A stretch of 64,000 nt of DNA from Chitinophagaceae bacterium (GTDB taxonomy: Bacteria > Bacteroidota > Bacteroidia > Chitinophagales > Chitinophagaceae). The stretch lies in NCBI GenBank assembly GCA_046329585.1, contig JAXLUI010000001.1, positions 168,846-232,845 on the forward strand, in the 5' to 3' direction. The position numbers were made by a program, and so were the translations under genes. Positions 2,898 to 39,899 of this stretch are shown in pieces (the stretch's first letter is position 1; each line of letters begins with the position of its first letter). The notes beneath the pieces were generated by a model. The model was not told the origin of the DNA and did no database searches. It saw only the letters and a list, made by a program, of their open reading frames with translations.

Positions 2898-4424
2898 TTA
2901 TTTATCTCCGCCGGCTTCGTCAATATTAAGCGGATAGCCATAAGTGCCATCGTAACCGGGGTAAATACCTTCAAGTTTCACCGTTCCCTGCGAACTCCTT
3001 AGTATAGCCGCAAGTTGGTCCATGGTTCTTACCTCTTGTCCATCGACGCTGGTAATAACAAAACCTTCCTGCATCCTTGTATTCTTCAATATACCATCCC
3101 CCAATTTTTTAACCAGCACGCCTCCGGCGATGTCATTCTTCTTCGCCGTGGCTGCGTCTAAATTTACCAATTCGCCTCCGAGTTTATCCAGCACACTTTC
3201 CTGTTTGACTGTTTCGTAAGTGCCAGCTTTATTTTTCAGGGTAATTGACGCAGTGCTTTCTTTCCCATTTCGAACGTATGTTACGTTTATTTTGTCGCCT
3301 GGTTTATACCGCAATACCTGCTCCTGTAACTCAGGTCCGGTCGCGATTGTAACACCATTCACTTTAGTAATAAAATCGCCTTTTTGCAGGCCACCTTCTT
3401 TCGCAGCACCATCGTCTGCGACACCACTTACAAATACACCTGGGCCGTCTTTAATTCCCTGGGCTTTTTTCTGCTCTTCAGAGGCGTCATCAGGAGGATA
3501 AGAAATACCGATGTATGCCTTCTGAACCGCACCATATTTCATCAGGTCGTTTACCACTTTTTTTACAATGTTAACGGGTATGGCATAGGAGTACCCGGCG
3601 TAGGAACCTGTTGGGGATGCGATGGCAGAATTAATGCCGATCAATTCCCCTTCGGTGTTGATTAACGCCCCACCACTGTTACCCGGGTTAACTGCCGCAT
3701 CGGTCTGTATGAATGATTCAATCGGGTTGGGCCCTTTGTTAATGCCAATTGAACGGGCTTTCGCACTTATTATGCCAGCTGTAACGGTTACATCAAGATT
3801 CAATGGATAGCCAATAGCCAATACCCACTGCCCCAGTTTAACATCGTCGCTGTTGCCGTAAACCATATAAGGTAAATTGCTGGCATCAATCTTAATAACG
3901 GCCAGATCGGTGTTCCTATCTGTGGCAACCACTGTACCCTTATATGTTTTCCTGTTGGACGTTGTTACGGTAACCTCATCAGCATCTTCTACGACGTGGT
4001 TGTTGGTAACAATATAACCATCATTACTTACCAGCACTCCACTGCCGCTTGCACGCTGTTCCGGGATTACTGAGCTACGTGGGCCGCCAAAAAAATCCTG
4101 GAATGGATCATCATCTCCAAAAAGATCGGAAAGTGGGCTTTTTCGTCTTGGAAGATTGTTGCTAACCTGCCTCTCTTTGGTGCGGGTTTTAATATGCACC
4201 ACCGCAGGTGTAGCCGAAGTTGATGCTGCTGTAAAGTCCACTGCACCCGCTGCCATATTGTTTTTGTCGAAAAATCCCGCATAGTTTACGGGGAGTTTTC
4301 CATCTTGCTGTAATACAACAGAGCTATAATTTCCGGCAATCTTATTATAGCCCCACATACTCAAAATGGCGGTAGAAGCACTTATGGCCACCACCAGCAA
4401 AATGTTTTTGAGTTTCATCGTCAT
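2898..4424 (-). CDS. Do/DegP/HtrA-family periplasmic serine endoprotease with two PDZ domains
   Basis: Trypsin-like catalytic motifs (HVVEDADEV, DLAVIK, GNSGGALIN) are followed by two PDZ-like segments. The N-terminus has a signal anchor (MTMKLKNILLVVAISAST). The start was chosen at the internal Met before the signal peptide. Confidence 0.85.
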   Translation of the reverse strand: MTMKLKNILLVVAISASTAILSMWGYNKIAGNYSSVVLQQDGKLPVNYAGFFDKNNMAAGAVDFTAASTSATPAVVHIKTRTKERQVSNNLPRRKSPLSDLFGDDDPFQDFFGGPRSSVIPEQRASGSGVLVSNDGYIVTNNHVVEDADEVTVTTSNRKTYKGTVVATDRNTDLAVIKIDASNLPYMVYGNSDDVKLGQWVLAIGYPLNLDVTVTAGIISAKARSIGINKGPNPIESFIQTDAAVNPGNSGGALINTEGELIGINSAIASPTGSYAGYSYAIPVNIVKKVVNDLMKYGAVQKAYIGISYPPDDASEEQKKAQGIKDGPGVFVSGVADDGAAKEGGLQKGDFITKVNGVTIATGPELQEQVLRYKPGDKINVTYVRNGKESTASITLKNKAGTYETVKQESVLDKLGGELVNLDAATAKKNDIAGGVLVKKLGDGILKNTRMQEGFVITSVDGQEVRTMDQLAAILRSSQGTVKLEGIYPGYDGTYGYPLNIDEAGGDK

Positions 4425-4675
4425 TTTATTTTTTTGTTTTTTAGTTTCTATTGCTTGGTCAAATTTCGTTCCTTTCGATAACAAAGAAACAAACCTGTTT
4501 AATCGTCAGTTGATAAATATTTCCTTTTAACATAAAATTGACGAAAGGAATCGTAGTTCTGACAATTTTTCTTGTGAATACGACAGCTCTTCTGCAACAT
4601 AAAAAAGTCTTTATTAAAACGCGGTTTTGAAACGTTGCAGTGACTATATGAAACAGCCAAAAAATTAAACAATGA

Positions 4676-10316: not shown

Positions 10317-13300
10317 ATGAGAAGAGAACTGCTACTCCTCGTACTCATTGCTTTTTGTTGCAGCGCCACTGCACAACACGCTGAAGACTTTCGACAAGCA
10401 TGGCATACGATCGACTCGCTGATGGTTGAAAAAGATCTTCCTGCTTCGGCGCTTGCAAAGGTCGATTCATTGTATAAAGCCGCAAAGGAGCAACACCGGG
10501 ACGACGAGATGATAAAGGCAGTTGTATACAAACTTTCAATCGACAGCAAGATTACAGAGCACAACATCAACGTTACTTACCGGTTATTGTGGAACGAAAT
10601 GAAAGATGCGACAACGCCTGTAACCAAGGCTGTTCTGCAGGCACTGCTTGCCGATAAAATCAATAAGCTTTACACGCAAAATATATGGCAAAACCAAAAC
10701 AGGAAAACGGTCCCGGGGAACAAGGACAGCGATATAACCAGTTGGAGCAATGAACAACTCGTTGCAGCAACAGACAGCCTTTACGAGGAGTCACTTTCTC
10801 AGGAAAGCCTATTACGTAACATTAATATCTCAGCCTATGCAGGCATAGTGCTGAGTGGTAATACTCCCGGGATTAGAACAACACTGTATGATGTGCTGGC
10901 GCACCAGGCACTTGACTACTACAAGACGGGGCTGCGTTATATAACTGAACCGGCTTATGCTTTTAAGCTGACAGACAAAAACTGCCTGGCTGTTACGGAT
11001 GATTTCATAAAGGCCGGCTTTTCCTCAAAAGACAGTGCATCGCATTTATTGAAATCAATTCACCTGTTCCAGCAGTTGCTGGCATTTCATCATAACGATT
11101 TAAATGCAGAAGCCTTTGTGGATGTAGCAATTGAACGCATTCTCTGGGTAAACACATTCGGTTCTTTCGACAACAAGGATGTACTTTATGTAAACGCGCT
11201 TCAGGACATTGCTGCGAAATACGCTAAAACAAGATCCGCTGCAGAGGCCTGGTTTCTTTTAGCCGACCGTGAATCTCAAAAGGCGGATTCTTATAAACCA
11301 ACCGGCGACTCGCTGAACAGGTATGGGTATATAAAAGCAAAAACAACTATCCTCGAACGGTTCAAGGCAATGCCGGATCATTGTTTGGGCAACGATGAAA
11401 TGAACGCCTTGCTTCACAGGATTACTAGCCCGGAGTTGAATACCGTAGCTGAAAATAATAATGTAGCCGGCCAGCCATTCAGACTATTGGTAAAATATAG
11501 GAACGTAGATACCCTGTATGCAAAAGTATTATCACAGCAAGATGTAAACAAAACCGCCCGTAAAAAAACTTATAACAAGTGGAGAGATTTGCCCGCAGTT
11601 AAGGCTTTGCAAACATTTGAGCAATGGCTACCGAAAACAAACGACTACCAGGAGCACAGTGTTGAGGTAAAAATAGACGCACTGCCGGTGGGCGACTACA
11701 GCATATTGTTCAGCAACAGTAAAGACTTCAACAACGATAAAGACAAACTCGTGTTGCAAACACTGAGTGTTTCGGAGCTCGCTTATATGCACAATGAATA
11801 TGACTACTTCGTGGTGAATCGGGAAACTGGGCATCCGGTCAAAGATGTGAAAGTCAGGGGAACAATTGAAGTAAAACGAAAAGGCAAAGACGACTGGAAA
11901 ACAAAAAAAATAAAACCGGTTTACACAGACTCGAATGGCCACATCGCATTACCTGTTGATCTAAAAAACAAGAACCGATATGGAGATGCAGACCTTCAGT
12001 TTTCAAAAGGAAAAGAAGTTTTATATTCTTTTGATCGGGCGTTTGGCTACAGCTACAGCAATAGTGAAGATGAGGATGACGACGAAGATGATTCAACTTA
12101 TGAAGATGATAACTCGTTCGTGCATTTTTTTACGGACAGAAGTATCTACCGTCCAGGCCAAACAGTTTATTTTAAAGGCATTGTACTCACCAAAGACCGA
12201 AAAACCCGAAAAGAAAAACTGTACCGGTATCCCGATAGTGCCGAGATAGACCTGAACGATGCCAATGGTAAAATGATCGACTCAATGTTTGTAAAAGTGA
12301 ATGAGTACGGCTCTTTCAGTGGAAAATTCCGTTTGCCTCAAAATGCGCTCACCGGTGAATTTTCTATAGACAGCTACGATTTCATGGATGGGGAGATCGA
12401 ATTCAACGTGGAAGAATATAAGCGCCCAACATTCTATATGGAATTTGATGGCATAAAAACCGCTTACCGGGTTAAAGACACGATTACTATTTCCGGCTAT
12501 ATAAAAGCCTATGCCGGTAACGCGGTCGACAACGCAAAGCTGACTTACAATGTCGAGCGGTCGGCATCCTTCCCATACCCTTACTTGTTTTGGAAAACGA
12601 GACGCCCTTATTCAGGCACGGAAGAAATCGCAACCGGTTCAGTTGACGTAGATGCAAACGGGAAATTTGAGATCAGGTTTGTTGCTATGCCCGATAGTTC
12701 TGTTGATAAGAACTCAGAACCTTTTTTCAATTTTTCGGTCGACATATCGGTAACTGATGCAAACGGTGAGACAAGGGAAGGCAAAACAAACATCAATATC
12801 GGCTATAAGTCTTTATTGTTGCAGATAACCGTTCCCGGTATAGCAGATGCCGGGAATTTTCAAAACATATTTGTTACCACAAAAAACTGCGCAGGGGAGA
12901 ATGTTCCCGCCAATGTTCTGCTAAAGGTAAGCAAATTAAAGGTTCCCTCAAAAGCCTACCGCACCCGGCAATGGGAAAGACCAGACCAGTTCATTTTCGA
13001 CAAGGCGGCCTACCAAAATTACTTTCCAAACGATGAATACGAAGCGGAAGCCGACTACCATGAATGGGTTAAAATGCCAGCCGAGGTGCTTGACACATTC
13101 AATACGGCAACGAGTTCGGCGTTCAGGATAAAACAACCCCTGCTGCAGGGCTGGTATTGCGTTGAAGCAACAACAAAAGATAATGATGGCATGGAAGTAA
13201 AAGACGTTCGCTACTTCCAGTTGTACGATATGGACGAACCAGGGCTTCCATCTCCCCAGGTGAATTTTTCTAAAGTGCTAAACAATTCGGGTTTGTCCGG

Positions 13301-16300
13301 AGACAGGATGCAGCTAATGCTTGGAACAAGCGAAAGCGATGTATTTGCCATTCAGAAATTAACCCGGCAGGGAACGGATACGACGGGTTCTTTAAATTAT
13401 ATTAACCTGGACAATGGAAAACAAAAGCTCACATATGTGCTTAAGCCTACAGACAAAGATAATCTCGGTATGTTCTACGCCTTTATTAAACACAATTGCT
13501 TTTATACAGGAGGAATGCAGGTATATATAAACGATGCCTTGAAAAACCTGCAGATAACTTATTCAACCTATCGCAATAAAACAGAACCAGGAAGCAAAGA
13601 AACCTGGTCGGTGCAGGTAACCAACCCGGCAAACTCGAAGACTGATGCGGAAGTATTAACGGCTATGTATGATGCTTCACTTGACCAGTTTAAAAAACAC
13701 GAGTGGGAGATCCCAGTTTCTGAAAGACGCACGTATATCCGCAACGAATGGCAGGCAGATAATTTTGGAAGGCAGTCATCGGATGCGAACATGCTGCCCG
13801 GTTTTATTATTACAGAGACAAAGCAGTATGCGAAGCTTGGAAAAAGTATTACGGATTTCGTTTCGGGTTATCAGCCCTTAAGCACAAGGCCGGCGGCTAT
13901 CAAGACAGCATTTAGTTTCCCGGAAAATACGCCTGCCAACTATCTCCGGATATTGGGTGTAGTAAAAAGTATGAGAGACAAAGAACCGGTTGCCGGTGTT
14001 ACCGTGCTGGCAAAAAATAACAGCATAGGCACAACTACAAACGCTGCGGGTGAATTTGCTTTAGCGGTTCCACCAAATACAGAAAGTCTAATAATGAGTT
14101 CCGTTGGGTTCCAGTCTTTAGAGGTTCGGCTTGACAAAACCACGGTCCAGGCATTTTTAAAAGAACAGTCTTCTAACCTTAACGAAGTGGTAGTAACCGG
14201 ATACGGCAGCGCATTAAAGAAAGATCTTACAGGTTCGGTGGCTGGTATCCAGGTACAGGCATTGTCAGATACTGTTTCTTTTAAGATGAAAATACGGGGT
14301 ATCGCCAGCGTAGCTGACGCCAATACGTTGCTCGTGATTGTCGACGGCGTAGTGGTTGACAAAAAGATCGGTGATATTAACACAAGCGACATCGAATTTG
14401 TAACAGTTTTAAAGGGTGCCGAAGCAGTAAATATCTATGGTACCAGCGCAGCCAGCGGGGCTATTCTTGTTACTACCAAAGAATACGCCTTGCGCAATGG
14501 AAACAAGAAAGACGAAACTCCTGTGCTGCGGGTGAGAAAAAATTTTAATGAAACCGCTTTCTTTCTCTCACAATTGCATGCCGATAGCTCGGGGAAATTT
14601 ACTTTCAGCTTCACCATGCCCGATGCATTAACACAATGGAAATGGATGACATTGGCGCATACAAAAGACTTGCAATTTGGATTGCGAAATGAAAACATCG
14701 TAACGCAAAAAACGCTGATGGTACAGCCAAACTTGCCAAGATTTTTTACACAGGACGACACGCTCTTGCTAACCACAAGAATCAGTAACCTGTCCGATTC
14801 GGTAGTCGCTGGCTCTGCTTACGTCGCATTTTTTGACGCCACGACCAACCAGCAATTGAGCAATTTTGCAAAAGCAATCGATGAACAGCAGGTGTTCAAA
14901 GTTGAGGCAGGCAGAACGACTACGATAAAGTTTCCTGTGTACATTCCAACTGGCATCATTAAACCCGTTACAATAAGAGTTATTGCAAGCGCCGGCAAAT
15001 ACAGCGACGGAGAAGAAAACACTTTGCCAGTTCTGAGCAACCGTACGCTGGTAACAGCATCCTTGCCGCTGTTTATGAAAACAGGGGGGGCAAAAAATTT
15101 CAAATTCAACAAGCTAGTGACCAACACTTCAAGCACGGCATCTACTGAAAGCCTTACGGTTGAATATACGCCAGATCCAATATGGGCTTGCATAACGTCG
15201 TTGCCTTACCTGATGGAGTTTCCGCATGAATGCGCCGAGCAAACCTTTAACCGCTTTTATGCAAACGAACTATCGTCTTATATCATTGCAACACATCCGG
15301 CAATAAAAAAAGTGCTGGAAAAATGGCGTACAGATTCCACAGCACAGCTCGGCTCCCTGGTAACGAACCCGGAACTAAAACAGGTACTGCTCAACGAAAC
15401 GCCATGGGTATTTGATGCAGGAAATGAAACCCAACAACGCAACAATCTTGTGCGCCTGCTCGATACAACGGAAAATGACAAGCAGGCAGTGGCCGCGTTG
15501 CAAAAATTAAAACAAATGCAAAAAAAAGACGGAGGCTTTGCGTGGTTTACAGGTGGCCAGTCAGATCGTTACATAACACAGTATATTTTAACAGGAATTG
15601 CAAGGTTGAAAAAAATGTATGCCGTTCCGGAAAATGCGCAAGCCATAATTGATGATATCAGTAGTAAAGCCTTAACCTACCTCGATAAGAGAACATCCGA
15701 CGATTTTGAGGCAATGCTCAAGAGAAAGGTGGATCTCAGCGCTAACCTTCTTGATCCAATCACAGTGCAATATTGGTACATGCGCAGTATGTTTGGCAGT
15801 GAAAATGAAAACGGCTTTCCTGAAAAGGCCTTCCGTTTTGCAAGGGTCCAGGCGGAAAAATACTGGGCAACGCAATCGCCTTATATGCAGGGAATGCTGG
15901 CCATCGCACTCAATAATCTCTTCCCGGTTATAAAGCCACTCACAAAAGTCAGGAACACACAACTCGATATCGTTAATTCCTTAAAAGAAAACGCGGTCAG
16001 CGACTCCGTTAAAGGAACATCCTGGAAAATTAATGACGGTTATCATTGGTACGAGTCGCCGGTAGAAATGCAGTCTTTATTGATCGAAGCATTCGACGAA
16101 ATCATACCTGGTGACAGCATTATCATAGCTATGAAGCAGTGGCTGATTATGAATAAGCAAACCAATAACTGGTCTACCACCAGGGCAACCGCAGATGCAT
16201 GCACCGCATTGCTTTCGGGCGATATAGGCATTCCTTTGCAGTCAACTGTTGTGTCAATTAAATTGGGCGACTCAACCATTGGTAATGATGCAGGAACAGC

Positions 16301-16916
16301 AGCGTATGGCGATGGCACTGGCTATCTCAGGCACCACATCGATGGAAGAAACGTGCAACCTTCTATGGGTAACATCAATGTTACAGTAACTAAAAAAGTG
16401 AATGGCAATTTTCCTGGCGTTTCCTATGGAGCTGTGTACTGGCAATATTTTGAAGACGCAGACAAAGTGACTTCTGCCAATAACGCATCGCCTTTCTTCA
16501 TATCAAAACAGTTGTTCATCGAACAAAATACTGACAAAGGCAAAGTGCTTCGGCAGATCAATGCGGACAATGAATTGAAAGTTGGCGACAAAATAATCAT
16601 TCGCCTTGTCATCAAATGCGACCGCGATATGGAATACATTCATCTTAAAGATATGCGTGCATCAGCGATGGAACCTGACAACGTATTAAGTGAGTACAAA
16701 TGGCAGGACGGAGTTGGTTACTATCAAAGCACGAAAGATGCCTCAACCAATTTCTTTATCAGCAACATCAGCAAAGGAACTTATGTGCTAGAATACCCGG
16801 TTCATCTCACACACAGTGGATCTTTTACCACCGGTATCGCCGGTATTCAATGCATGTATGCCCCGGCCTATGCCGCACACAGCGATGGAATACGCATCAA
16901 CGTGCAACCGCAATAA
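10317..16916 (+). CDS. Alpha-2-macroglobulin (MG2/A2M) family protein, 2,199 aa, with a CAEQ thioester motif and an internal SusC-like CarbopepD_reg + TonB-plug module
   Basis: Signal peptide. Repeated MG-domain starts (FFTDRSIYRPGQTVYFKG). Thioester-region motif FPHECAEQTFNRFYAN. An internal segment YLRILGVVKS...VVVTGYGSALKKDLTGSV...KMKIRGIASV...LLVIVDGVVVD...DIEFVTVLKGAEAVNIYGTSAASGAILVTTK matches a SusC N-terminal module. Confidence 0.8.
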   Translation: MRRELLLLVLIAFCCSATAQHAEDFRQAWHTIDSLMVEKDLPASALAKVDSLYKAAKEQHRDDEMIKAVVYKLSIDSKITEHNINVTYRLLWNEMKDATTPVTKAVLQALLADKINKLYTQNIWQNQNRKTVPGNKDSDITSWSNEQLVAATDSLYEESLSQESLLRNINISAYAGIVLSGNTPGIRTTLYDVLAHQALDYYKTGLRYITEPAYAFKLTDKNCLAVTDDFIKAGFSSKDSASHLLKSIHLFQQLLAFHHNDLNAEAFVDVAIERILWVNTFGSFDNKDVLYVNALQDIAAKYAKTRSAAEAWFLLADRESQKADSYKPTGDSLNRYGYIKAKTTILERFKAMPDHCLGNDEMNALLHRITSPELNTVAENNNVAGQPFRLLVKYRNVDTLYAKVLSQQDVNKTARKKTYNKWRDLPAVKALQTFEQWLPKTNDYQEHSVEVKIDALPVGDYSILFSNSKDFNNDKDKLVLQTLSVSELAYMHNEYDYFVVNRETGHPVKDVKVRGTIEVKRKGKDDWKTKKIKPVYTDSNGHIALPVDLKNKNRYGDADLQFSKGKEVLYSFDRAFGYSYSNSEDEDDDEDDSTYEDDNSFVHFFTDRSIYRPGQTVYFKGIVLTKDRKTRKEKLYRYPDSAEIDLNDANGKMIDSMFVKVNEYGSFSGKFRLPQNALTGEFSIDSYDFMDGEIEFNVEEYKRPTFYMEFDGIKTAYRVKDTITISGYIKAYAGNAVDNAKLTYNVERSASFPYPYLFWKTRRPYSGTEEIATGSVDVDANGKFEIRFVAMPDSSVDKNSEPFFNFSVDISVTDANGETREGKTNINIGYKSLLLQITVPGIADAGNFQNIFVTTKNCAGENVPANVLLKVSKLKVPSKAYRTRQWERPDQFIFDKAAYQNYFPNDEYEAEADYHEWVKMPAEVLDTFNTATSSAFRIKQPLLQGWYCVEATTKDNDGMEVKDVRYFQLYDMDEPGLPSPQVNFSKVLNNSGLSGDRMQLMLGTSESDVFAIQKLTRQGTDTTGSLNYINLDNGKQKLTYVLKPTDKDNLGMFYAFIKHNCFYTGGMQVYINDALKNLQITYSTYRNKTEPGSKETWSVQVTNPANSKTDAEVLTAMYDASLDQFKKHEWEIPVSERRTYIRNEWQADNFGRQSSDANMLPGFIITETKQYAKLGKSITDFVSGYQPLSTRPAAIKTAFSFPENTPANYLRILGVVKSMRDKEPVAGVTVLAKNNSIGTTTNAAGEFALAVPPNTESLIMSSVGFQSLEVRLDKTTVQAFLKEQSSNLNEVVVTGYGSALKKDLTGSVAGIQVQALSDTVSFKMKIRGIASVADANTLLVIVDGVVVDKKIGDINTSDIEFVTVLKGAEAVNIYGTSAASGAILVTTKEYALRNGNKKDETPVLRVRKNFNETAFFLSQLHADSSGKFTFSFTMPDALTQWKWMTLAHTKDLQFGLRNENIVTQKTLMVQPNLPRFFTQDDTLLLTTRISNLSDSVVAGSAYVAFFDATTNQQLSNFAKAIDEQQVFKVEAGRTTTIKFPVYIPTGIIKPVTIRVIASAGKYSDGEENTLPVLSNRTLVTASLPLFMKTGGAKNFKFNKLVTNTSSTASTESLTVEYTPDPIWACITSLPYLMEFPHECAEQTFNRFYANELSSYIIATHPAIKKVLEKWRTDSTAQLGSLVTNPELKQVLLNETPWVFDAGNETQQRNNLVRLLDTTENDKQAVAALQKLKQMQKKDGGFAWFTGGQSDRYITQYILTGIARLKKMYAVPENAQAIIDDISSKALTYLDKRTSDDFEAMLKRKVDLSANLLDPITVQYWYMRSMFGSENENGFPEKAFRFARVQAEKYWATQSPYMQGMLAIALNNLFPVIKPLTKVRNTQLDIVNSLKENAVSDSVKGTSWKINDGYHWYESPVEMQSLLIEAFDEIIPGDSIIIAMKQWLIMNKQTNNWSTTRATADACTALLSGDIGIPLQSTVVSIKLGDSTIGNDAGTAAYGDGTGYLRHHIDGRNVQPSMGNINVTVTKKVNGNFPGVSYGAVYWQYFEDADKVTSANNASPFFISKQLFIEQNTDKGKVLRQINADNELKVGDKIIIRLVIKCDRDMEYIHLKDMRASAMEPDNVLSEYKWQDGVGYYQSTKDASTNFFISNISKGTYVLEYPVHLTHSGSFTTGIAGIQCMYAPAYAAHSDGIRINVQPQ

Positions 16917-17118: not shown

Positions 17119-17253
17119 AGTTGATGAGGGCAGTGCAAAAGCCCGGACACAAAAATTACTCGCTGTTTTTAAAATATAGCATGCGGGCTTTATGCATTTT
17201 CTTTAGCATTGCATCCTCCTAATATCACTAAATTGTGTCACCAATTTTTTTTC

Positions 17254-20200
17254 ATGAAAAGGATATTGCTGTTTGTTTTTTTGCTGACCGGGTTTGCTAA
17301 AACGATTTTTGCTCAATCAAAAGACTCCACATACAAAAAACAATGGGCGGAGATCGATTCACTGGTACTTGAAAAAGGTTTGCCAAAATCTGCCTTGAAA
17401 AATACAAATGCTTTGTATACGCAAGCCAAAGCAGAAAAGCAGCAAGATGAAGCAATTAAAGCGCTGCTTTACAGGCTGGCACTCGAACCACAGGTAACAG
17501 AAACCGATGTTAATAAGCAGATCGCGTCCATTAGTGAAGAAATCGCTGCCGCTGGTGATGAAGCCGAAGCAGCCGTGCTGAACACCATACTGGCAGCTGT
17601 GTACGAGGATTTTTTCAACAATAACTCCTACCGTTTCTACAACAGGGCCGCAACAAAAAAATTCGCCAAAGCGGATGTTAATACCTGGAGTGCGGATGAT
17701 TTTAACGATACCATTAGCAGTCTTTATAATAAAGCAATGACTGCTGCAGCCATATTACAACAGCAACCGGCAAACAGGTTTGAAGCACTGGTAATAAAAG
17801 GCAATGCCGGAAACCTTCGCCCGACATTATATGATTTGCTTGCACATAAAGCGTTAGACTTTTACAAAAACAGCAATCGCTTTGTTACAAAGCCGTCGTT
17901 TGCATATGAGATAACTGCGCCAGCAGCCCTGGCTCCTGCTGATGAATTTATCATACATCGCTTTTCATCCGTTGACAGTGCTTCTAATTTGCTACAGGCA
18001 CTTTTACTATTTCAGCAACTAACGAAATTCCACAGCAAAGATGTTGATCCGTCTGCCTATATCGATATAGATATCGAACGCCTTGAATGGGTAAAAGAAA
18101 ATAGTACAATCAATGAAACGGATTCATTATATAAAATTGCACTCGAAGCGATCACCGCAACTTTCCCGGACAATGCAGCAACATCGCAGGCATGGTATCT
18201 TTTGATAAAAATTGTCGCGGACAAGGCGGCTGAATACAATCCGTTTGGCGATACTACGCATCGCTACGGTTATGTAAAAGCAAAACAACAGATCGAAGAA
18301 AGATTGACAAAGCAACCAGCTAAATCAGAAGGCAACAGCAACATGCAGCAGTTGCTCAATGAAATTGTAAAGAAAGAATTAAAAACACAGGTAGAGAATG
18401 TAAATGTGCCAGGCCAGCCCTTCAGGATGTACGTTCAATACCGGAATGTGCAAACAATGCATCTTCGCATTATTAACGCCGCGGCGCTTGCCGGGATGCC
18501 CGGTACGGATCAATATGAAGAAGGCTACTGGAAAGCTGTTACCCAATTGCCTTACCTGACATCATCTATTCAACAACTACCTGATACAAAGGATTACCAG
18601 CAACATGCCACTGAGATAAAAATTGATCCGCTTGAGCCTGGCAGTTACGCAATACTGGCTTCATCATCTGCCAATTTTAATGACAGCACCGATAAACTTA
18701 TGCTGCAACGGTTTGATGTATCTGGCATCAGTTATATTGCCAGCAACGCCGACTATTTTATACTGAACAGGGAAACCGGTCAGCCATTAAAAAATGTAAA
18801 AGTGAAGTATGAATTCCTCCAATGGGATTACAAGGAAAGAGAATTTGTTGTAAGTAATTCAGGCAGCCTGTTGCCAGATGCCAACGGCTTTGTTACCCTG
18901 AAAGATCGTATAAAAGGAAATGACAGGAATTATGCGCTCACCATTTACCAGGGCAAGGACTCTTTGAAGACCAACCAGGATAACCGCTATGTTCCTTACA
19001 ACAACGAAAAAGACGACAAAACAACGCCACCTGATTTTGAAAAAAGGCATACCCAGTTCTATTTCTTTACCGACAGAAGTATTTACCGGCCCGGGCAAAC
19101 CGTTTATTTCAAGGCGATTGCTGTAACAAAAAATCAACAAACAGGCAAACCAATGCTGGCTTCAATAAAGGAAGCATTGAACCTGGTTTTGAAGAATACG
19201 AACGGGCAAAAAATTGATACGATCACTATTAAATTAAACAGCTACGGTTCTCTGTCCGGTTCCTTTAAATTACCGCTACAGACCCTAACCGGCAATTTTT
19301 CCATCATAGCAGAAAAATACAATGGCACTGCAAATTTTAATGTGGAAGACTATAAACGTCCTACATTTTTCGTGGAGTTTGACACGTTAAAATCGACATA
19401 CCGGCTAAACGATAGTATAAAAATAACAGGCGCTGTGAAAGCATACGCGGGGAATAACCTTGATGGCGCAAAAATTAAATTCAATGTGCACCGCGATACA
19501 AGGTTTATTTATCCATGGCTGTTTTGGCGTAAAATAAGGCCGGCTACTTCGTCCCAACAGATTGCACAGGGAGAAATTATAACGGACGCCGAAGGAAAGT
19601 TCGAAATACTTTTCGTAGCACAGCCTGACCGATCCGTCGATAGTTCCGGCGACCCGGTTTTTGATTTTAGCATTGATGCGGCAGTCACAGACATAAATGG
19701 TGAAACAAGAGATGGCAGCACCCAATTATCAGTTGGCTACAAATCGTTGCAACTACAACTCTCAGTTCCCGGCATTGCAGACCTAAACAAGTTTGATACT
19801 ATTGGAGTTACCACCGAAAATTTTTCAGGCAATAAGGTTGCCGCCAATGTAAAACTGAATATCTACCCGCTCACGGTTCCCACTGAAATAGTACGCAACC
19901 GTTATTGGGAAAGACCCGATCAGTTTGTGATGCCGAAAGATGATTACAAAAGATTATTTCCCTACGACGAATATGCTGACGAATCAGATTATCATAGCTG
20001 GGAAAAAAAAGCAAGCGTTTTTTCTGGTTCGGTAAAAACCGCGGACTCATCTTTTATAAAAATTGCAAAGGGCATTTTAAAACAAGGCTGGTATGCAATA
20101 GAAGCCGTAAGCAAAGACAAAGATGGTAACGAAGTAAAGGATGTCGCTTATACCGCGTTGTATGATGAACAATCGGCTTCACTCCCCTCGCCTCAGATCG

Positions 20201-23200
20201 AGTGGAATGCAGCTATAAAAACGGAAGGCCAGCCCGGTGAGAAAGCAAAACTGTTGCTCGGCACAAGTGATAAAGATGTTTATGTTATTCAACAATTGCA
20301 AAAGAATCGGGATGACAAGCGGGAGGATCAATACGCATATTTTAAACTCAGCAATCAGAAACAAACAATCGAAACCGAAATAACAGAACAAAGCCGCAAA
20401 GGCCTTGGCCTTTATTATGCTTTTGTAAAACACAACCGTGTTTATTCCGGTGGTATAAATGTATATGTGCCATATACTGACAAAGACCTGGACGTTGTTT
20501 ATAAGACTTACCGCAATAAAACAGAACCGGGCAGCAAAGAACAATGGACGGTTGAGGTGAAAGGGAATAAAGGAGAAAAAACAACAGCTGAATTGTTAAC
20601 TGCCATGTATGACGCATCGCTTGACCAGTTTAAGCCGCATGAATGGATTTTACCGGATTTATGGCCTGTTGGATATACCAATAACAGCTTTTTAGCCGAT
20701 GATAATTTTGCTGCAGTAAATTCAGAAGAAAATAACATCCAGGTTAACGCGCCTTATTTTGAAAAGATTTATAATGAGCTCGTTGTAAACGGAGAAGCTT
20801 TTTGGGTTAAACTCAACAGCGTGTCTTACCCTGTTGGGATGCTGTCAGAACAAAATAAGGTGGTGATGTACAACGCTCCACTGGCCCTTGAACAGGCACC
20901 AAGACGCCTGATGGTTACTAAATTTACCGCACCAAAGATCGTAGCTGACGAAGAGTTAGCTGAACCCCTGCAATCAACCGGCGATATTAGGGGCGCCGTT
21001 AAGAAGAAAGAGGTGCCATCTTTCCAGCCTCGAAAAAATTTCAACGAAACAGCCTTCTTCATCCCTGATCTGTACGCTGATACCTCAGGAAATTACAGCT
21101 TTAGTTTTACCATTCCTGAGGCGTTGACACAATGGAAGTGGATGGTCCTCGCTCATACAAAAAATCTGGCGTTTGGTTATAAACAAAAAAAGATCATTAC
21201 GCAAAAAAGCCTGATGGTTCAACCAAACCTACCCAGGTTTGTCCGCGAAGGAGACCAGATGGAAGTACCAATCAGGGTGACCAATCTTGCTGACACAATC
21301 CTGACCGGAAAAGCAACATTGCAATTATTTGACGCAATAACAAATGACCCTGTCGACGGTGCTTTTCAGAGTGTATTTCCCGACCAGTATTTTACTGTCG
21401 AACCAGGAAAAAGCAGCGAAATAAAGTTCCCAGTCAGTATTCCTTTTGGATTCAATAAACCGGTAACAATCAGAATTATTGCTGAAGCAGGCGGTTATTC
21501 AGACGGCGAAGAAAATACTTTACCATTGTTAACCAACAGGGCACTTGTTACAGAAAGCCTTCCGCTCTTTCTGCGTGGTGACGGTAGCAAGCAGTTTAAA
21601 TTTGAGAAGTTGGCCGGCAATAATTCGGCAACACTTACCAATGAAAGCATTACCGTTGAATATACGCCCAACCCTATCTGGTTTGCCATACAGGCATTAC
21701 CCTATGTAGCCGAAGCGAAAAACAATAGTGCTGAACAGGTATTTAACCGTTTTTATGCAAATACAATGGCTGCCTACCTCTTAAAACAGCACCCCCGAAT
21801 CAAGGCCGTCTTCGATAAATGGAGGGCTGATACATCTGCACTCAAAAGCAATCTTGAGAAGAACCCTGAATTAAAACAGGCACTGCTGGAAGAAACGCCA
21901 TGGATTATAGATGCTACGAATGAAACACAGCAAATGAAAAACCTGGCTATACTTTTTGACTTGTCAAATATGAGCGATGCCACGCAGGCGTCACTGCAGC
22001 AATTAAAACAAATGCAGTTGCCCGACGGTTCCTTTTCGTGGTTTAGGGGCGGTTACCCCGATAGATATATTACGCAAACTATTCTCACAGGCATAGGCAG
22101 GTTAAAAATGCTCAACGCCATTTTGCCGGATCAAACGGCAGAACTCAACGGCATTGCACTTAGGGCGCTAAACTACTCCGACAACGAGATCACCAGGGAA
22201 TATGATCTTATCGTGAAAAGCAAGGTGGATAAAAACAAAAACAACCTTTCCGCTTCTGGCATCCAATATCTTTTCATGAGAAGTTATTTTAAAGATGTTC
22301 CGCTAAAAGACAAAAATGCACATAGTTTTTATTTCTTCCAGGCAATGAAATACTGGAATACACAATCTGTTTATCTGAAAGGAATGATCGCTGCAACTTT
22401 ATTCCGTAACTATTTCAGAACGTACACCTACAAAAACATTATTCCATCCATTCTCGAGAATACAATTGAAGACCCCGCAAAGGGCATGTATTTCAAAAAC
22501 AGCCAATGGGGTTATTACTGGTATCAAAACCCTGTAGAACAGCAGTCGCTCATGATAGAATTACTTAACGAAATGCAACCGTTTTTCAAAGACGCACAAA
22601 TGAAATCTGCGGTCAACGATATGCGTACATGGCTTTTACTCAATAAACAAACAAACAATTGGAAAACAACAAAAGCCACGGCCGATGCTTGCTATGCGCT
22701 ACTGTTAAACAGTGAACATGAAATAACCGACAACAGAACAGTACAGGTGAAACTCGGAAATAAACTGCTCCCGCAGGATGCAGCCGCCGAGGGCACGGGG
22801 TATATCAAAACCCGGATTGATGGAACTGCCGTAAATAACACGCTTGGAAACATAGCGATTACAGTTAAATCAAACGACACCGCAAACCATGCGAACTCGC
22901 CTTCGTGGGGTGCTGTTTACTGGCAGTATTTTGAAGATCTTGATAAAATAACTCCCGCTGCTACTCCCCTGTCACTTAACAAAAAACTATTTATAGAAAC
23001 GAATACCGCTTCCGGCAAAGTGCTTGTCCCGGTTAACGATAATGATGAATTGAAAGTTGGTGACAAAGTAGTCATTCGTTTGGAACTTCGCAGCGACCGC
23101 AACATGGAATACCTGCACCTGAAAGATATGCGCGCCTCGGCAATGGAACCATCGAACGTGCTTAGCGGATTTAAATGGCAGGACGGCCTTGGTTACTATG

Positions 23201-23385
23201 AAGCAACAAAAGACGCCTCATCCGATTTTTTTATCGATCATCTTTCCAGGGGCACTTACGTTTTCGAATACCCATGTTACATTACGCAGCGCGGTAATTT
23301 TTCGGTAGGTATTGCAACCATTCAGTGCATGTATGCGCCCGATTTCAGCAGTCACAGTGAAGGCATCAGGATCAATGTGGAGTAA
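17254..23385 (+). CDS. Alpha-2-macroglobulin (MG2/A2M) family protein, paralog 2, about 2,043 aa. The thioester Cys is replaced (SAEQ) and there is no plug insertion.
   Basis: Signal peptide MKRILLFVFLLTGFAKTIFAQ. Collinear homology to the upstream paralog (FFTDRSIYRPGQTVYFKA, RKNFNETAFF, LTQWKWMVLAHTK, VTIRIIAEAGGYSDGEENTLP). The thioester position reads AKNNSAEQVFNRFYAN. Confidence 0.8.
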   Translation: MKRILLFVFLLTGFAKTIFAQSKDSTYKKQWAEIDSLVLEKGLPKSALKNTNALYTQAKAEKQQDEAIKALLYRLALEPQVTETDVNKQIASISEEIAAAGDEAEAAVLNTILAAVYEDFFNNNSYRFYNRAATKKFAKADVNTWSADDFNDTISSLYNKAMTAAAILQQQPANRFEALVIKGNAGNLRPTLYDLLAHKALDFYKNSNRFVTKPSFAYEITAPAALAPADEFIIHRFSSVDSASNLLQALLLFQQLTKFHSKDVDPSAYIDIDIERLEWVKENSTINETDSLYKIALEAITATFPDNAATSQAWYLLIKIVADKAAEYNPFGDTTHRYGYVKAKQQIEERLTKQPAKSEGNSNMQQLLNEIVKKELKTQVENVNVPGQPFRMYVQYRNVQTMHLRIINAAALAGMPGTDQYEEGYWKAVTQLPYLTSSIQQLPDTKDYQQHATEIKIDPLEPGSYAILASSSANFNDSTDKLMLQRFDVSGISYIASNADYFILNRETGQPLKNVKVKYEFLQWDYKEREFVVSNSGSLLPDANGFVTLKDRIKGNDRNYALTIYQGKDSLKTNQDNRYVPYNNEKDDKTTPPDFEKRHTQFYFFTDRSIYRPGQTVYFKAIAVTKNQQTGKPMLASIKEALNLVLKNTNGQKIDTITIKLNSYGSLSGSFKLPLQTLTGNFSIIAEKYNGTANFNVEDYKRPTFFVEFDTLKSTYRLNDSIKITGAVKAYAGNNLDGAKIKFNVHRDTRFIYPWLFWRKIRPATSSQQIAQGEIITDAEGKFEILFVAQPDRSVDSSGDPVFDFSIDAAVTDINGETRDGSTQLSVGYKSLQLQLSVPGIADLNKFDTIGVTTENFSGNKVAANVKLNIYPLTVPTEIVRNRYWERPDQFVMPKDDYKRLFPYDEYADESDYHSWEKKASVFSGSVKTADSSFIKIAKGILKQGWYAIEAVSKDKDGNEVKDVAYTALYDEQSASLPSPQIEWNAAIKTEGQPGEKAKLLLGTSDKDVYVIQQLQKNRDDKREDQYAYFKLSNQKQTIETEITEQSRKGLGLYYAFVKHNRVYSGGINVYVPYTDKDLDVVYKTYRNKTEPGSKEQWTVEVKGNKGEKTTAELLTAMYDASLDQFKPHEWILPDLWPVGYTNNSFLADDNFAAVNSEENNIQVNAPYFEKIYNELVVNGEAFWVKLNSVSYPVGMLSEQNKVVMYNAPLALEQAPRRLMVTKFTAPKIVADEELAEPLQSTGDIRGAVKKKEVPSFQPRKNFNETAFFIPDLYADTSGNYSFSFTIPEALTQWKWMVLAHTKNLAFGYKQKKIITQKSLMVQPNLPRFVREGDQMEVPIRVTNLADTILTGKATLQLFDAITNDPVDGAFQSVFPDQYFTVEPGKSSEIKFPVSIPFGFNKPVTIRIIAEAGGYSDGEENTLPLLTNRALVTESLPLFLRGDGSKQFKFEKLAGNNSATLTNESITVEYTPNPIWFAIQALPYVAEAKNNSAEQVFNRFYANTMAAYLLKQHPRIKAVFDKWRADTSALKSNLEKNPELKQALLEETPWIIDATNETQQMKNLAILFDLSNMSDATQASLQQLKQMQLPDGSFSWFRGGYPDRYITQTILTGIGRLKMLNAILPDQTAELNGIALRALNYSDNEITREYDLIVKSKVDKNKNNLSASGIQYLFMRSYFKDVPLKDKNAHSFYFFQAMKYWNTQSVYLKGMIAATLFRNYFRTYTYKNIIPSILENTIEDPAKGMYFKNSQWGYYWYQNPVEQQSLMIELLNEMQPFFKDAQMKSAVNDMRTWLLLNKQTNNWKTTKATADACYALLLNSEHEITDNRTVQVKLGNKLLPQDAAAEGTGYIKTRIDGTAVNNTLGNIAITVKSNDTANHANSPSWGAVYWQYFEDLDKITPAATPLSLNKKLFIETNTASGKVLVPVNDNDELKVGDKVVIRLELRSDRNMEYLHLKDMRASAMEPSNVLSGFKWQDGLGYYEATKDASSDFFIDHLSRGTYVFEYPCYITQRGNFSVGIATIQCMYAPDFSSHSEGIRINVE

Positions 23386-38294: not shown

Positions 38295-39899
38295 TTATGG
38301 CAGTATAATCTTTTGGGTTTGCACCTTTCCCTGCTGCAACACCTGGAGAATGTATACGCCAGCGGTGTTGCTGCCGCAGTTAAGCACAACTGAATTGTCG
38401 AATGTTTTTTGTGACAACACACGAACTCCATTCATATTATAAATGCTGGCAGTCGCGGCACCTGCATTCAGCAGTTGGATGGTGATTGTTTTGCCGCTTT
38501 GCTGAACAGCAAAAATATTTGTCTTGTCATCTGGATTGTTGATTACTACTGCATTATTGCTGCTGACACTGCTGATAACAGCCGGGCAGGTGGCCGTATT
38601 GCTGCAGGCATTTTTATCTCCGCGGCAACCATAGCGGTAATTTTCGCAATCAACAAAACGCGTGGATGCCAATTTATCTTTCGACCCTTGATTCATGATG
38701 TATTGAAAGAAAGTAGCGGCACGCTGCACAATATAGGTTTGTACTTTTTTATTATTCACGGTGTCGCCGATGCCAAAATCAGAAAGGCCTTCCTCAAGAC
38801 CATGCTTCATGTCGCAATCGATATACAGTTCGGCTTTTTTGTTTAACTGTGTTTTTATTACATCGTATAAGCCCTGGGAGCCAAGCATTTTGAGATCGGG
38901 CTTTTGCTTGCCGTTTGCAGGCAATGTGAAGGTCTTATTGTTCGTACAAAAGCTTTCAGATGCATAGCTGGAACCCTCGGAAAAATACATATCTGCACTG
39001 TTGATATTCACTTCATCATCCATTCCGCCATGAAAAGCGATAAAGGGCGGCAGGTCAGGGCTCTGTTTGATAAAACTTCCCGGGTCAGCTGCATAAGCTT
39101 GAGGTACAGGATACCCCCCCCACATATCAAGTATGCCCTTAATGGTAAAATTGCTGTTGCCTGCATAGCCATCTACATCCACAGGCCCTAAAACATCCTT
39201 TACACCCGTGAACAATTTTGCCGCCATATCACTGGTGAAATAAGCAAGTACCAGGGCAATTTCAGCACCGGAACTTGAGCCGCCGACAAAGATTTTGCTC
39301 GTATCAATTCTATACGCCTCAGTTCTTGCATTTTCACGGGCCACAATAGTTCTGATGGCACCTTTGCTATCCTGCAATGCCCGGTAAAAGGAGAGCCAGT
39401 GACTGGCCGAAGTAAACTTTTTCTGCGGATCTTCTATCCTGCCCCTGCGGTATTCAATATTAAAGGCAACATAACCTCTTTGGGCAAACTCTGTGCAAAC
39501 ATCCTGCGCCCCGCTCTGGGGGTTTGAGCAATCCGAGAAACCACCTGCATGCAGCATAATAAACACCGGTAGTTTATTGGCATCGGAATAGTTGATCTTT
39601 GGATAATACACATCATAATAAAGGTCGCCGTTCCCGTTAACGCAACTCGTTTCCGTTGAACAGGCTTTATTGATGAGCGAGTCGGTGAGGTAGTTAACAT
39701 CGTAGTTGATAAAATTGCGCCGGGAGTAATTCACATTTTCCTCAAGGATAATTTGCGAAGAACTATAAACCGGGTGAATAAGATTTGTGCACGAGGTTAC
39801 TTGTGCGTTGGCACAAAAAGAAACAGACACGAGTATAAAAAGGCATAAAGATGTTTTCTGAACTATCCCGTTTATGGGTGAAAAAAAAGTTGTCCGCAT
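38295..39899 (-). CDS. Secreted alpha/beta-hydrolase esterase/lipase with a T9SS C-terminal sorting domain
   Basis: Signal peptide. GxSxG nucleophile elbow (VGGSSSGAEIAL). The C-terminal CTD is ITIQLLNAGAATASIYNMNGVRVLSQ...GVYILQVLQQGKVQTQKIIL. Confidence 0.7.
   Translation of the reverse strand: MRTTFFSPINGIVQKTSLCLFILVSVSFCANAQVTSCTNLIHPVYSSSQIILEENVNYSRRNFINYDVNYLTDSLINKACSTETSCVNGNGDLYYDVYYPKINYSDANKLPVFIMLHAGGFSDCSNPQSGAQDVCTEFAQRGYVAFNIEYRRGRIEDPQKKFTSASHWLSFYRALQDSKGAIRTIVARENARTEAYRIDTSKIFVGGSSSGAEIALVLAYFTSDMAAKLFTGVKDVLGPVDVDGYAGNSNFTIKGILDMWGGYPVPQAYAADPGSFIKQSPDLPPFIAFHGGMDDEVNINSADMYFSEGSSYASESFCTNNKTFTLPANGKQKPDLKMLGSQGLYDVIKTQLNKKAELYIDCDMKHGLEEGLSDFGIGDTVNNKKVQTYIVQRAATFFQYIMNQGSKDKLASTRFVDCENYRYGCRGDKNACSNTATCPAVISSVSSNNAVVINNPDDKTNIFAVQQSGKTITIQLLNAGAATASIYNMNGVRVLSQKTFDNSVVLNCGSNTAGVYILQVLQQGKVQTQKIILP

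Follow-up and report, generated by a model that had tools for sequence, protein, structure and literature searches.

Why should an alpha-2-macroglobulin (A2M) contain, in the middle of its chain, the N-terminus of a SusC/RagA-type TonB-dependent transporter? The question is raised by a 64,000-nucleotide stretch of a Chitinophagaceae genome (assembly GCA_046329585.1, contig JAXLUI010000001.1, positions 168,846 to 232,845; referred to here as the window), in which two A2M genes, P1 and P2, lie in tandem. The original prediction had placed a SusC-like module at 13930-14500, corresponding to amino acids (aa) 1205-1395 of P1, and offered either a novel domain fusion or an assembly chimera as its explanation. 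The analysis reported here confirmed the module and placed the SusC-derived segment (the cassette, aa 1207-1388) in the A2M bait region, as judged from comparison with the paralog and with A2Ms of known structure. This location, missing from the earlier account, is the most informative point about the locus. The picture that emerges is of a real, widespread and uncharacterised bait-region cassette in bacterial A2Ms, already visible in public annotation.

Pfam matches to CarbopepD_reg_2 (aa 1213-1293, 59.9 bits, cut-off 32.2), CarboxypepD_reg (aa 1212-1271, 37.0 bits, cut-off 32.3) and Plug (aa 1303-1382, 34.4 bits, cut-off 23.9, covering only profile positions 27-107 of 107) were found between the MG2 and A2M domains of P1, all in one uninterrupted open reading frame (ORF). 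The NCBIfam model for SusC/RagA proteins (TIGR04056) scored 142 bits, far under its 368-bit cut-off, through the N-terminal part of the model only (best positions 3-109), and the SusC signature TIGR04057 reached 41.1 bits, below its cut-off of 46.2. When the cassette segment alone was compared with solved structures, it matched the SusC homologs 8aa4_A (E 6e-23) and Bt1763 (5t3r_D, E 1e-21), RagA (6sli_B, E 2e-18) and the isolated SusC N-terminal extension (NTE) 6ytc_A, a likeness far beyond chance. The motifs DLTG, IRG, PLxVxDG, DIExxxVLK, YG and GVIxITTK follow one another in SusC order, and the earlier assignment of the NTE and of the VVVTGYG, IRG, DG, VLK..A..YG and ITTK motifs was correct.

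Within the cassette, a folded NTE is followed by a Ton box, a flexible segment with remnants of the N-terminal plug, and a compact half-plug core (Table 1). Two AlphaFold models, of aa 401-1600 and of aa 1196-1400, bear on this arrangement. In the shorter one, a model of the kind proposed earlier as a check, the NTE and the core are predicted with confidence to fold, while the predicted local distance difference test (pLDDT) score of the Ton-box/IRG segment remains below 50. The core aligns to residues 149-236 of the SusC structure 8aa4. The plug is only partly as first described: its C-terminal sequence blocks are present, but relative to SusC the N-terminal plug has lost about 25 aa, including the LQGxxxGVxV strand between DLTGSVA and IRG, and plug folding is predicted only for the last ~55-60 aa (to aa 1395). 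The plug in P1 is thus best described as incomplete, amounting to the C-terminal two-thirds of Plug by profile and to a half-plug by predicted fold. A 150-aa antisense ORF (13940-14392, minus strand) lies exactly beneath the cassette; it is uncalled in the public assemblies of the locus and most likely just reflects the Val/Gly-rich sequence encoded on the opposite strand.

The position of the cassette follows from two comparisons. BLASTP alignment of P1 with P2 gave two collinear blocks, aa 1-1158 (42% identity) and aa 1392-2199 (51%), between which P1 has 233 aa (1159-1391) and P2 has 84 aa (1162-1245). The cassette is indeed absent from P2, which matches the Pfam domains MG2, A2M and bMG10 only. 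With 233 aa facing 84 aa, the cassette replaces a shorter variable block and is no clean insertion. Secondly, the motif RKNFNETAFF, which begins 18 aa after the end of the cassette, aligns with LRKNFSETFLW of Xenopus A2Moo (7s62, match from chain residue 715), with QVRQYFPETWLW of A2ML1 (7q1y) and with HVRKHFPETWIW of CD109, and in all three proteins the aligned motif begins the macroglobulin (MG) domain that comes straight after the bait. Since the block is variable between the paralogs and the motif marks the start of the post-bait MG domain, the cassette can be assigned to the bait region, directly upstream of that domain, which comes after the bait throughout the A2M family. A weak alignment with the Escherichia coli A2M, ECAM, pairs P1 aa 1432 with chain position 965 of 4rtd, which would put P1 aa 1407 at ~940, near the ECAM bait (Arg923-Leu942; PMC4498604), provided that the offset between chain index and residue numbering does not exceed ~20. 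The locus thereby pairs a thioester trap with a cassette (P1) and a thioester-less trap with an 84-aa conventional bait (P2); the homologs P0054, P0060 and P0065 likewise lack the thioester Cys.

An assembly chimera, in which an A2M gene had been mis-joined with a SusC gene, would account for the unusual domain combination, which is the only point in its favor. The reading frame is uninterrupted and the guanine-plus-cytosine (GC) content of the segment (0.44-0.45) equals that of its flanks. The identical 2,199-aa protein was found on 18 independent contigs of separate assemblies (among them ENA metagenome assemblies and NCBI GCA_002296895.1 and GCA_002478885.1), on all of which the gene order comprises MutS, a HAD hydrolase, P1, P2 and a DAO oxidoreductase. 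The proposed search for orthologs returned a syntenic, 70% identical protein (P0001) with the same Pfam set and the same cassette, as well as further cassette-bearing Chitinophagaceae, and the plug segment was present at the same site in ~38 of 120 homologs. A search with aa 1290-1500 (plug and MG domain) against 1.84 billion representatives gave 157 matches at E <= 1e-30; of the best 150 representatives (50% identity), ~135 have the plug core and the MG domain in one stretch, in proteins of ~2,000-2,200 aa. On this basis the plug-MG junction is present in at least ~130 protein clusters at 50% identity. It also occurs in cultured isolates of Chitinophagaceae, Sphingobacteriaceae and Flavobacteriaceae, among them Parafilimonas, Niastella, Mucilaginibacter, Pedobacter, Flavobacterium, Formosa, Tenacibaculum, Winogradskyella, Lutibacter and other genera. 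With the 18 contigs, the ortholog, more than 130 clusters and the isolate genomes, misassembly can be excluded.

A recent copy of a SusC gene of the same genome was also rejected: the best SusC-type matches are merely 27-43% identical, all of them to SusC N-terminal fragments. Nor did the window ORFs scanned include a TonB-dependent transporter. Rather than having arisen recently, the cassette layout appears to be long established in a large A2M family of the Bacteroidota.

Around the cassette, P1 reads as an intact thioester-containing bacterial A2M, with the MG-domain array, the thioester motif and the bait position expected of one. Its MG2 (aa 602-686, 66.9 bits), A2M (PF00207, aa 1413-1496, 63.2 bits) and bMG10 (aa 2062-2183, 100.7 bits) domains all scored above the Pfam cut-offs, and its beta-sandwich domains have pLDDT >85 in the model of aa 401-1600. 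The N-terminus shows a signal-peptidase-I-like ATA/Q site, with Gln as the residue after the cut, and no canonical lipobox, and '..AQ' is the family consensus at the end of the signal peptide. Having a signal peptidase I signal and lacking a lipobox, P1 is most likely exported and soluble in the periplasm. The periplasm is the compartment of the SusC NTE and Ton box and of the TonB C-terminal domain. The first 400 aa of P1 (10317-11516) and the matching part of P2 are mostly helical and have no Pfam match; this region of ~400 aa is kept throughout the ~2,000-aa Bacteroidota A2M family and is absent from ECAM-type proteins. An acidic low-complexity run, SNSEDEDDDEDDSTYEDDNS, lies just 5' of MG2 (aa ~575-600, ~12040-12120; pLDDT <50).

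To describe the cassette across the family, 268 A2M-like proteins were scanned with local hidden Markov models (HMMs) for its parts. The half-plug core was found at the same site in 170 proteins. Among these, the IRG motif is kept in 143, a strict Ton-box motif in 91 (~54%, in members at most ~50% identical to each other) and the NTE in 48 (~28%). A KNFNETAFF-type motif lies within 60 aa of the core in 127 of the 170, and the spacing from core to motif is 8-19 aa in all of these except one, where it is 27 aa. The thioester motif CxEQ was retained in each of the 37 plug-bearing A2M homologs with an alignable thioester segment (39 flagged). Compared with P0001, P1 is 65% identical in the NTE, 75% over the Ton-box and flexible region (aa 1287-1334), 66% in the core and 65-76% elsewhere in the chain; conservation within the cassette is therefore highest in the segment with predicted disorder, and in this lineage the cassette is not decaying.

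In a neighbour-joining tree built from non-bait columns, NTE-plus-plug and plug-only states are scattered, the deepest branches (P0110 and P0120) have both NTE and plug, and cassette-less members are nested within plug-bearing clades; one of the latter, P0022, retains a vestigial VVV..GY..KKKDITG. The most economical reading of the tree suggests an ancestral cassette followed by repeated partial or complete loss. In many plug-only homologs (P0018, P0019, P0021, P0013, P0088-P0091) a motif LQG[RK]VAGVSV stands 5' of the Ton box, whereas in SusC it comes after the Ton box. The displaced motif could be either a collapsed remnant of the deleted NTE (I.G.V...P.aGV.V) or the product of a local permutation. 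A series running from NTE plus plug through plug only and a vestigial Ton box (P0022) to nothing, in what is the most length-variable part of the family, would be expected of a neutral relic, that is, of an ancient recombination that put a SusC 5' end into an insertion-tolerant bait, where it persists and decays without function. We regard such a relic as very unlikely, given that the cassette does not diverge more quickly than other parts of P1, that a folded core is predicted with high confidence, and that the core motifs and their fixed spacing are kept across >130 clusters in three families.

We tentatively favor, at somewhat less than an even chance, a reading in which the cassette is a trigger module of the trap. 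The bait region would have been built from a domesticated SusC N-terminus, comprising the NTE, the Ton box, a flexible remnant of ~40 aa and the C-terminal half of the plug. The half-plug core, at a fixed spacing of 8-19 aa from the segment entering the next MG domain, is the positional counterpart of the ANA (anaphylatoxin) domain of complement C3 and could act as a bulky stopper that helps to keep the trap native and spring-loaded. As bait, open to attack by proteases, would serve the exposed Ton-box/IRG linker, the 18-aa linker rich in Lys or the two together; aa 1296-1334 are a candidate for this role, and the 18-aa linker is a candidate cleavage site and candidate equivalent of the alpha'NT segment, by analogy with C3 (PMC9352918). 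A cut in either would interrupt the chain and free the segment downstream of it to retract; the trap would then collapse, and the thioester, now exposed, would capture the protease. The NTE and Ton box might additionally serve as a docking site for TonB or for other proteins of the periplasm that interact with SusC N-termini. The core as stopper, the sites of cleavage and a contact with TonB are all inferred.

The trigger reading is favored because the core occupies the ANA position, with a short and constant spacing to the motif that starts the MG domain. It is also supported by signs of functional constraint, namely an identity to P0001 like that of the rest of the protein, the fixed spacing of the core and the retention of CxEQ. 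Several results weigh against it. Neither the NTE (pLDDT 65-78) nor the core (60-73) is confidently placed relative to the MG ring in the model of aa 401-1600, and both fold searches were dominated by the NTE, so that the fold of the half-plug is informed by neither. The cassette is dispensable in evolution, as many relatives, P2 included, do without it and the tree suggests repeated loss, and the Ton box is absent from ~46% and the NTE from ~72% of cassette-bearing members. Finally, a simple protease bait does not need a conserved Ton box or IRG arginine, and two further explanations, TonB docking and a decoy, therefore stay live.

In the first of these, the Ton box, aided by the NTE, would bind a TonB paralog and tether the soluble A2M under transporters, or the pull of TonB-ExbBD would position or trigger the trap. 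The Ton box of P1 is canonical and has EVVVTG in common with that of Bt1763 (82-DEVVVTG-88), in which deletion or mutation of the overlapping 81-VDEVVV-86 impaired growth on levan (PMC7782687). By prediction, the Ton box of P1 sits in an exposed, extended segment beside a well-folded NTE. A Ton box is kept in 91 of the 170 members amid an otherwise hypervariable region, and the segment around it is the cassette part best conserved between P1 and P0001. NTE-type domains also occur in the Bacteroides thetaiotaomicron TonB paralogs TonB7 and TonB11, where a role in forming the complex between transporter and TonB was proposed (PMC10350073), and P1, having no lipobox, has no evident membrane anchor, unlike ECAM. 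However, with ~46% of members lacking a recognisable Ton box and ~72% lacking the NTE, such coupling cannot be the family-wide role. In addition, TonB/ExbBD is not a conserved neighbor in 49 related loci (those with full flanks among loci L007-L086), and the literature searched contained no TonB client that is not a transporter. On balance we consider TonB coupling unlikely. Its specific form, an A2M that is a TonB client, docked through the Ton box with paralog specificity given by the NTE and stationed at, or triggered by force from, the TonB-transporter interface, seems to us distinctly doubtful.

Alternatively, the bait could mimic the periplasm-exposed SusC N-terminus as an integrated decoy, so that a protease or toxin attacking SusC would be captured on cutting the trap as well. 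The cassette reproduces the SusC N-terminus one motif after another and co-occurs with a thioester for covalent capture in all alignable homologs, and the bait sequence of an A2M sets what triggers the trap (PMC4498604). The plug, on the other hand, is truncated and often reduced to the half-plug only, which makes it a poor mimic. Baits of broad-spectrum traps are usually fast-evolving and unconstrained, and we know of no protease that targets SusC N-termini. A decoy function is therefore rather improbable in our view.

The retention of the IRG motif, whose arginine contacts the barrel, in 143 of 170 members would fit a further arrangement, in which the half-plug enters a plug-less barrel of the TonB-dependent type encoded elsewhere and so holds the trap at the outer membrane. 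The plug has lost its N-terminal strand, however, the IRG region is predicted to be disordered, and no barrel gene is a conserved neighbor in the 49 loci or was found among the window ORFs scanned. To our knowledge there is no precedent for a plug supplied in trans to a barrel, and we consider this arrangement highly improbable. The trigger module remains the reading that we favor.

Table 1. Features of the P1-P2 locus, in window coordinates.
Feature	Position	Strand	Basis
P1, cassette-bearing thioester-type A2M	10317..16916	+	2,199-aa ORF, frame 1, no internal stop; Pfam
Signal peptide of P1, aa 1-19 (MRRELLLLVLIAFCCSATA, then QH)	10317..10373	+	Read from sequence; cleavage site inferred
Variable first part of bait, aa 1138-1206	13728..13934	+	pLDDT 30-43 (model of aa 401-1600), predicted disordered; unalignable among homologs
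NTE, SusC-type N-terminal extension, Ig-like (transthyretin-like) fold, aa 1207-1286	13935..14174	+	CarbopepD_reg_2; pLDDT 95-97 (model of aa 1196-1400)
Ton box NEVVVTG, aa 1289-1295	14181..14201	+	Position look-up; EVVVTG common with Bt1763
Flexible segment with DLTGSVAG and KIRG motifs (N-terminal plug remnants), aa 1296-1334	14202..14318	+	pLDDT <50 in both models
Half-plug core (LLVIVDG...VLKGAEAVNIYG...ILVTTK), compact alpha/beta, aa 1335-1388	14319..14480	+	Within Pfam Plug match; pLDDT 86-92 (model of aa 1196-1400)
Basic Lys-rich 18-aa linker EYALRNGNKKDETPVLRV, aa 1389-1406	14481..14534	+	Spacing; Lys-rich family consensus
Post-bait MG domain, begins RKNFNETAFF at aa 1407	14535..14804	+	Pfam A2M, aa 1413-1496; structure alignments
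Thioester motif CAEQ, aa 1639-1642	15231..15242	+	Position look-up; conserved context FPHECAEQTFNRFY
P2, tandem paralog, 2,044 aa, no cassette, no thioester Cys (SAEQ)	17251..23385	+	335 bp downstream of P1; Pfam, BLASTP

The genomic surroundings offered no partner for the cassette. Besides P2, the neighbors of P1 are housekeeping genes (MutS, the HAD hydrolase and the DAO oxidoreductase). An operon partner was sought and rejected, as no conserved barrel, TonB/ExbBD or PBP1C gene adjoins the A2M across the 49 loci, and no SusD/RagB gene was found either among the window ORFs scanned or among the conserved neighbors of those loci. The recurrent neighbors, an Mpl/MurC-like ligase in 20 loci, a SucD-like protein in 14 and a DAO-like oxidoreductase in 13, look like plain synteny. 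The Mpl/MurC-like ligase, judged by N-terminal sequence only, is absent from this window; as a neighbor of A2M it recalls the peptidoglycan link (pbpC) of E. coli yfhM. Elsewhere in the window, an HtrA/DegP-type periplasmic serine protease (Trypsin_2 and PDZ; 2898-4484, minus strand) is encoded ~6 kb upstream of the A2M pair, and its synteny extends to the ortholog locus L006. A Bacteroidota origin of the window fits the presence of a BD-FAE/alpha-beta-hydrolase esterase (38295-39899, minus strand) that has a type IX secretion C-terminal sorting domain.

The claim of novelty held in part. No publication on a fusion of A2M with a SusC cassette was found in the macroglobulin, plug, TonB, SusC and Bacteroidetes literature, a search whose coverage left out most subscription journals, but the layout itself is common in public databases (at least ~130 clusters), where pipelines label relatives either 'TonB-dependent receptor plug domain-containing protein' or 'alpha-2-macroglobulin family protein'. 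The presumed task of bacterial A2Ms is to guard the periplasm against proteases, normally with a short disordered loop as the trigger. A large and widespread family has swapped this loop for the SusC parts that normally contact TonB and fill the barrel, a domain combination that would surprise A2M and TonB specialists alike. For the A2M field it amounts to a natural experiment on what a bait site can contain and on non-proteolytic firing, a question posed in PMC9352918. For the TonB field it offers a half-plug, an NTE and a Ton box that belong to no barrel, within a soluble and presumably more easily handled protein that could help to settle the partner of the NTE and whether the half-plug can fold by itself. 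If P1 were a TonB client, no protein other than a transporter would have been shown before it to use a Ton box, and no earlier A2M would have had a trigger based on interaction or force and not purely on proteolysis; if the cassette is merely a tolerated passenger, it would be a curiosity of domain shuffling.

Compared with known systems, P1 is closest in overall plan to the type I A2Ms ECAM/YfhM (4ziq, 4rtd) and Salmonella SaA2M (4u48), with which it has in common the MG chain, the CxEQ motif, bMG10 and export to the periplasm, as well as a bait directly upstream of the Pfam A2M domain (PMC4498604). Sequence similarity to ECAM is marginal (E ~3e-7, one MG domain only). P1 is ~550 aa longer, has the helical N-terminal region, and lacks the lipobox anchor of ECAM and an adjacent pbpC. 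Its bait contains two folded SusC-derived modules and a Ton box, in contrast to the short disordered loop of ECAM-type proteins. Type II A2Ms (Pseudomonas aeruginosa MagD, E. coli YfaS) are without the thioester Cys (PMC5764988), and in this respect they resemble P2 only. P2, however, is a close paralog of P1 (42-51% identity) and lies outside any mag-type operon.

The NTE fold, the Ton box and the motif order are those of SusC/RagA N-termini (Bt1763 5t3r and its NTE 6ytc, the SusCdex NTE 9hfj, RagA 6sli), and an NTE followed by a Ton box, the order required of SusC/RagA proteins, is present in P1. The cassette is nevertheless internal to a soluble protein, whereas its SusC counterpart is N-terminal, and identity is only ~30-40%. 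P1 has no 22-strand barrel: no TonB_dep_Rec match was found by Pfam, and 18 aa after the plug an MG domain follows instead. Lacking a barrel and a SusD partner gene, and with ~25 aa of its plug deleted, P1 is not a TonB-dependent transporter, and that name should not be applied to it.

In position, the closest parallel is with complement C3, C4 and C5, whose ANA domain is likewise a folded domain at the bait site, shortly before an MG start of the form R-x-x-F-x-E-[ST]. The spacing from ANA to MG start in C3 is ~17 aa. In C3, cleavage next to the folded ANA domain triggers the conformational change (PMC9352918). The analogy is purely positional: ANA is small, helical and disulfide-rich, with a fold and origin unrelated to those of the half-plug, no ANA match was found in P1 by Pfam, and no dedicated convertase is known for P1, unlike for complement.

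The modules of the cassette also recur in other hosts. An M56/BlaR1-like protein of Pedobacter gandavensis (L001:2955-4268, minus strand), encoded beside a BlaI-like repressor gene, ends in a half-plug (Pfam Plug profile 56-107, 25.5 bits), and a 1,233-aa protein (P0118) combines NTE and Plug with a C-terminal OmpA domain. Four proteins of 222-317 aa (P0121, P0124, P0136 and P0140), some on contigs of 26-268 kb, contain NTE and Plug only and may be stand-alone NTE-plug proteins or broken SusC genes. The M56 protein, P0118 and the NTE-bearing TonB paralogs have modules in common with the cassette of P1, in differing hosts of which none is tied to a thioester trap. SusC N-terminal modules are thus reused outside barrels in several Bacteroidota proteins.

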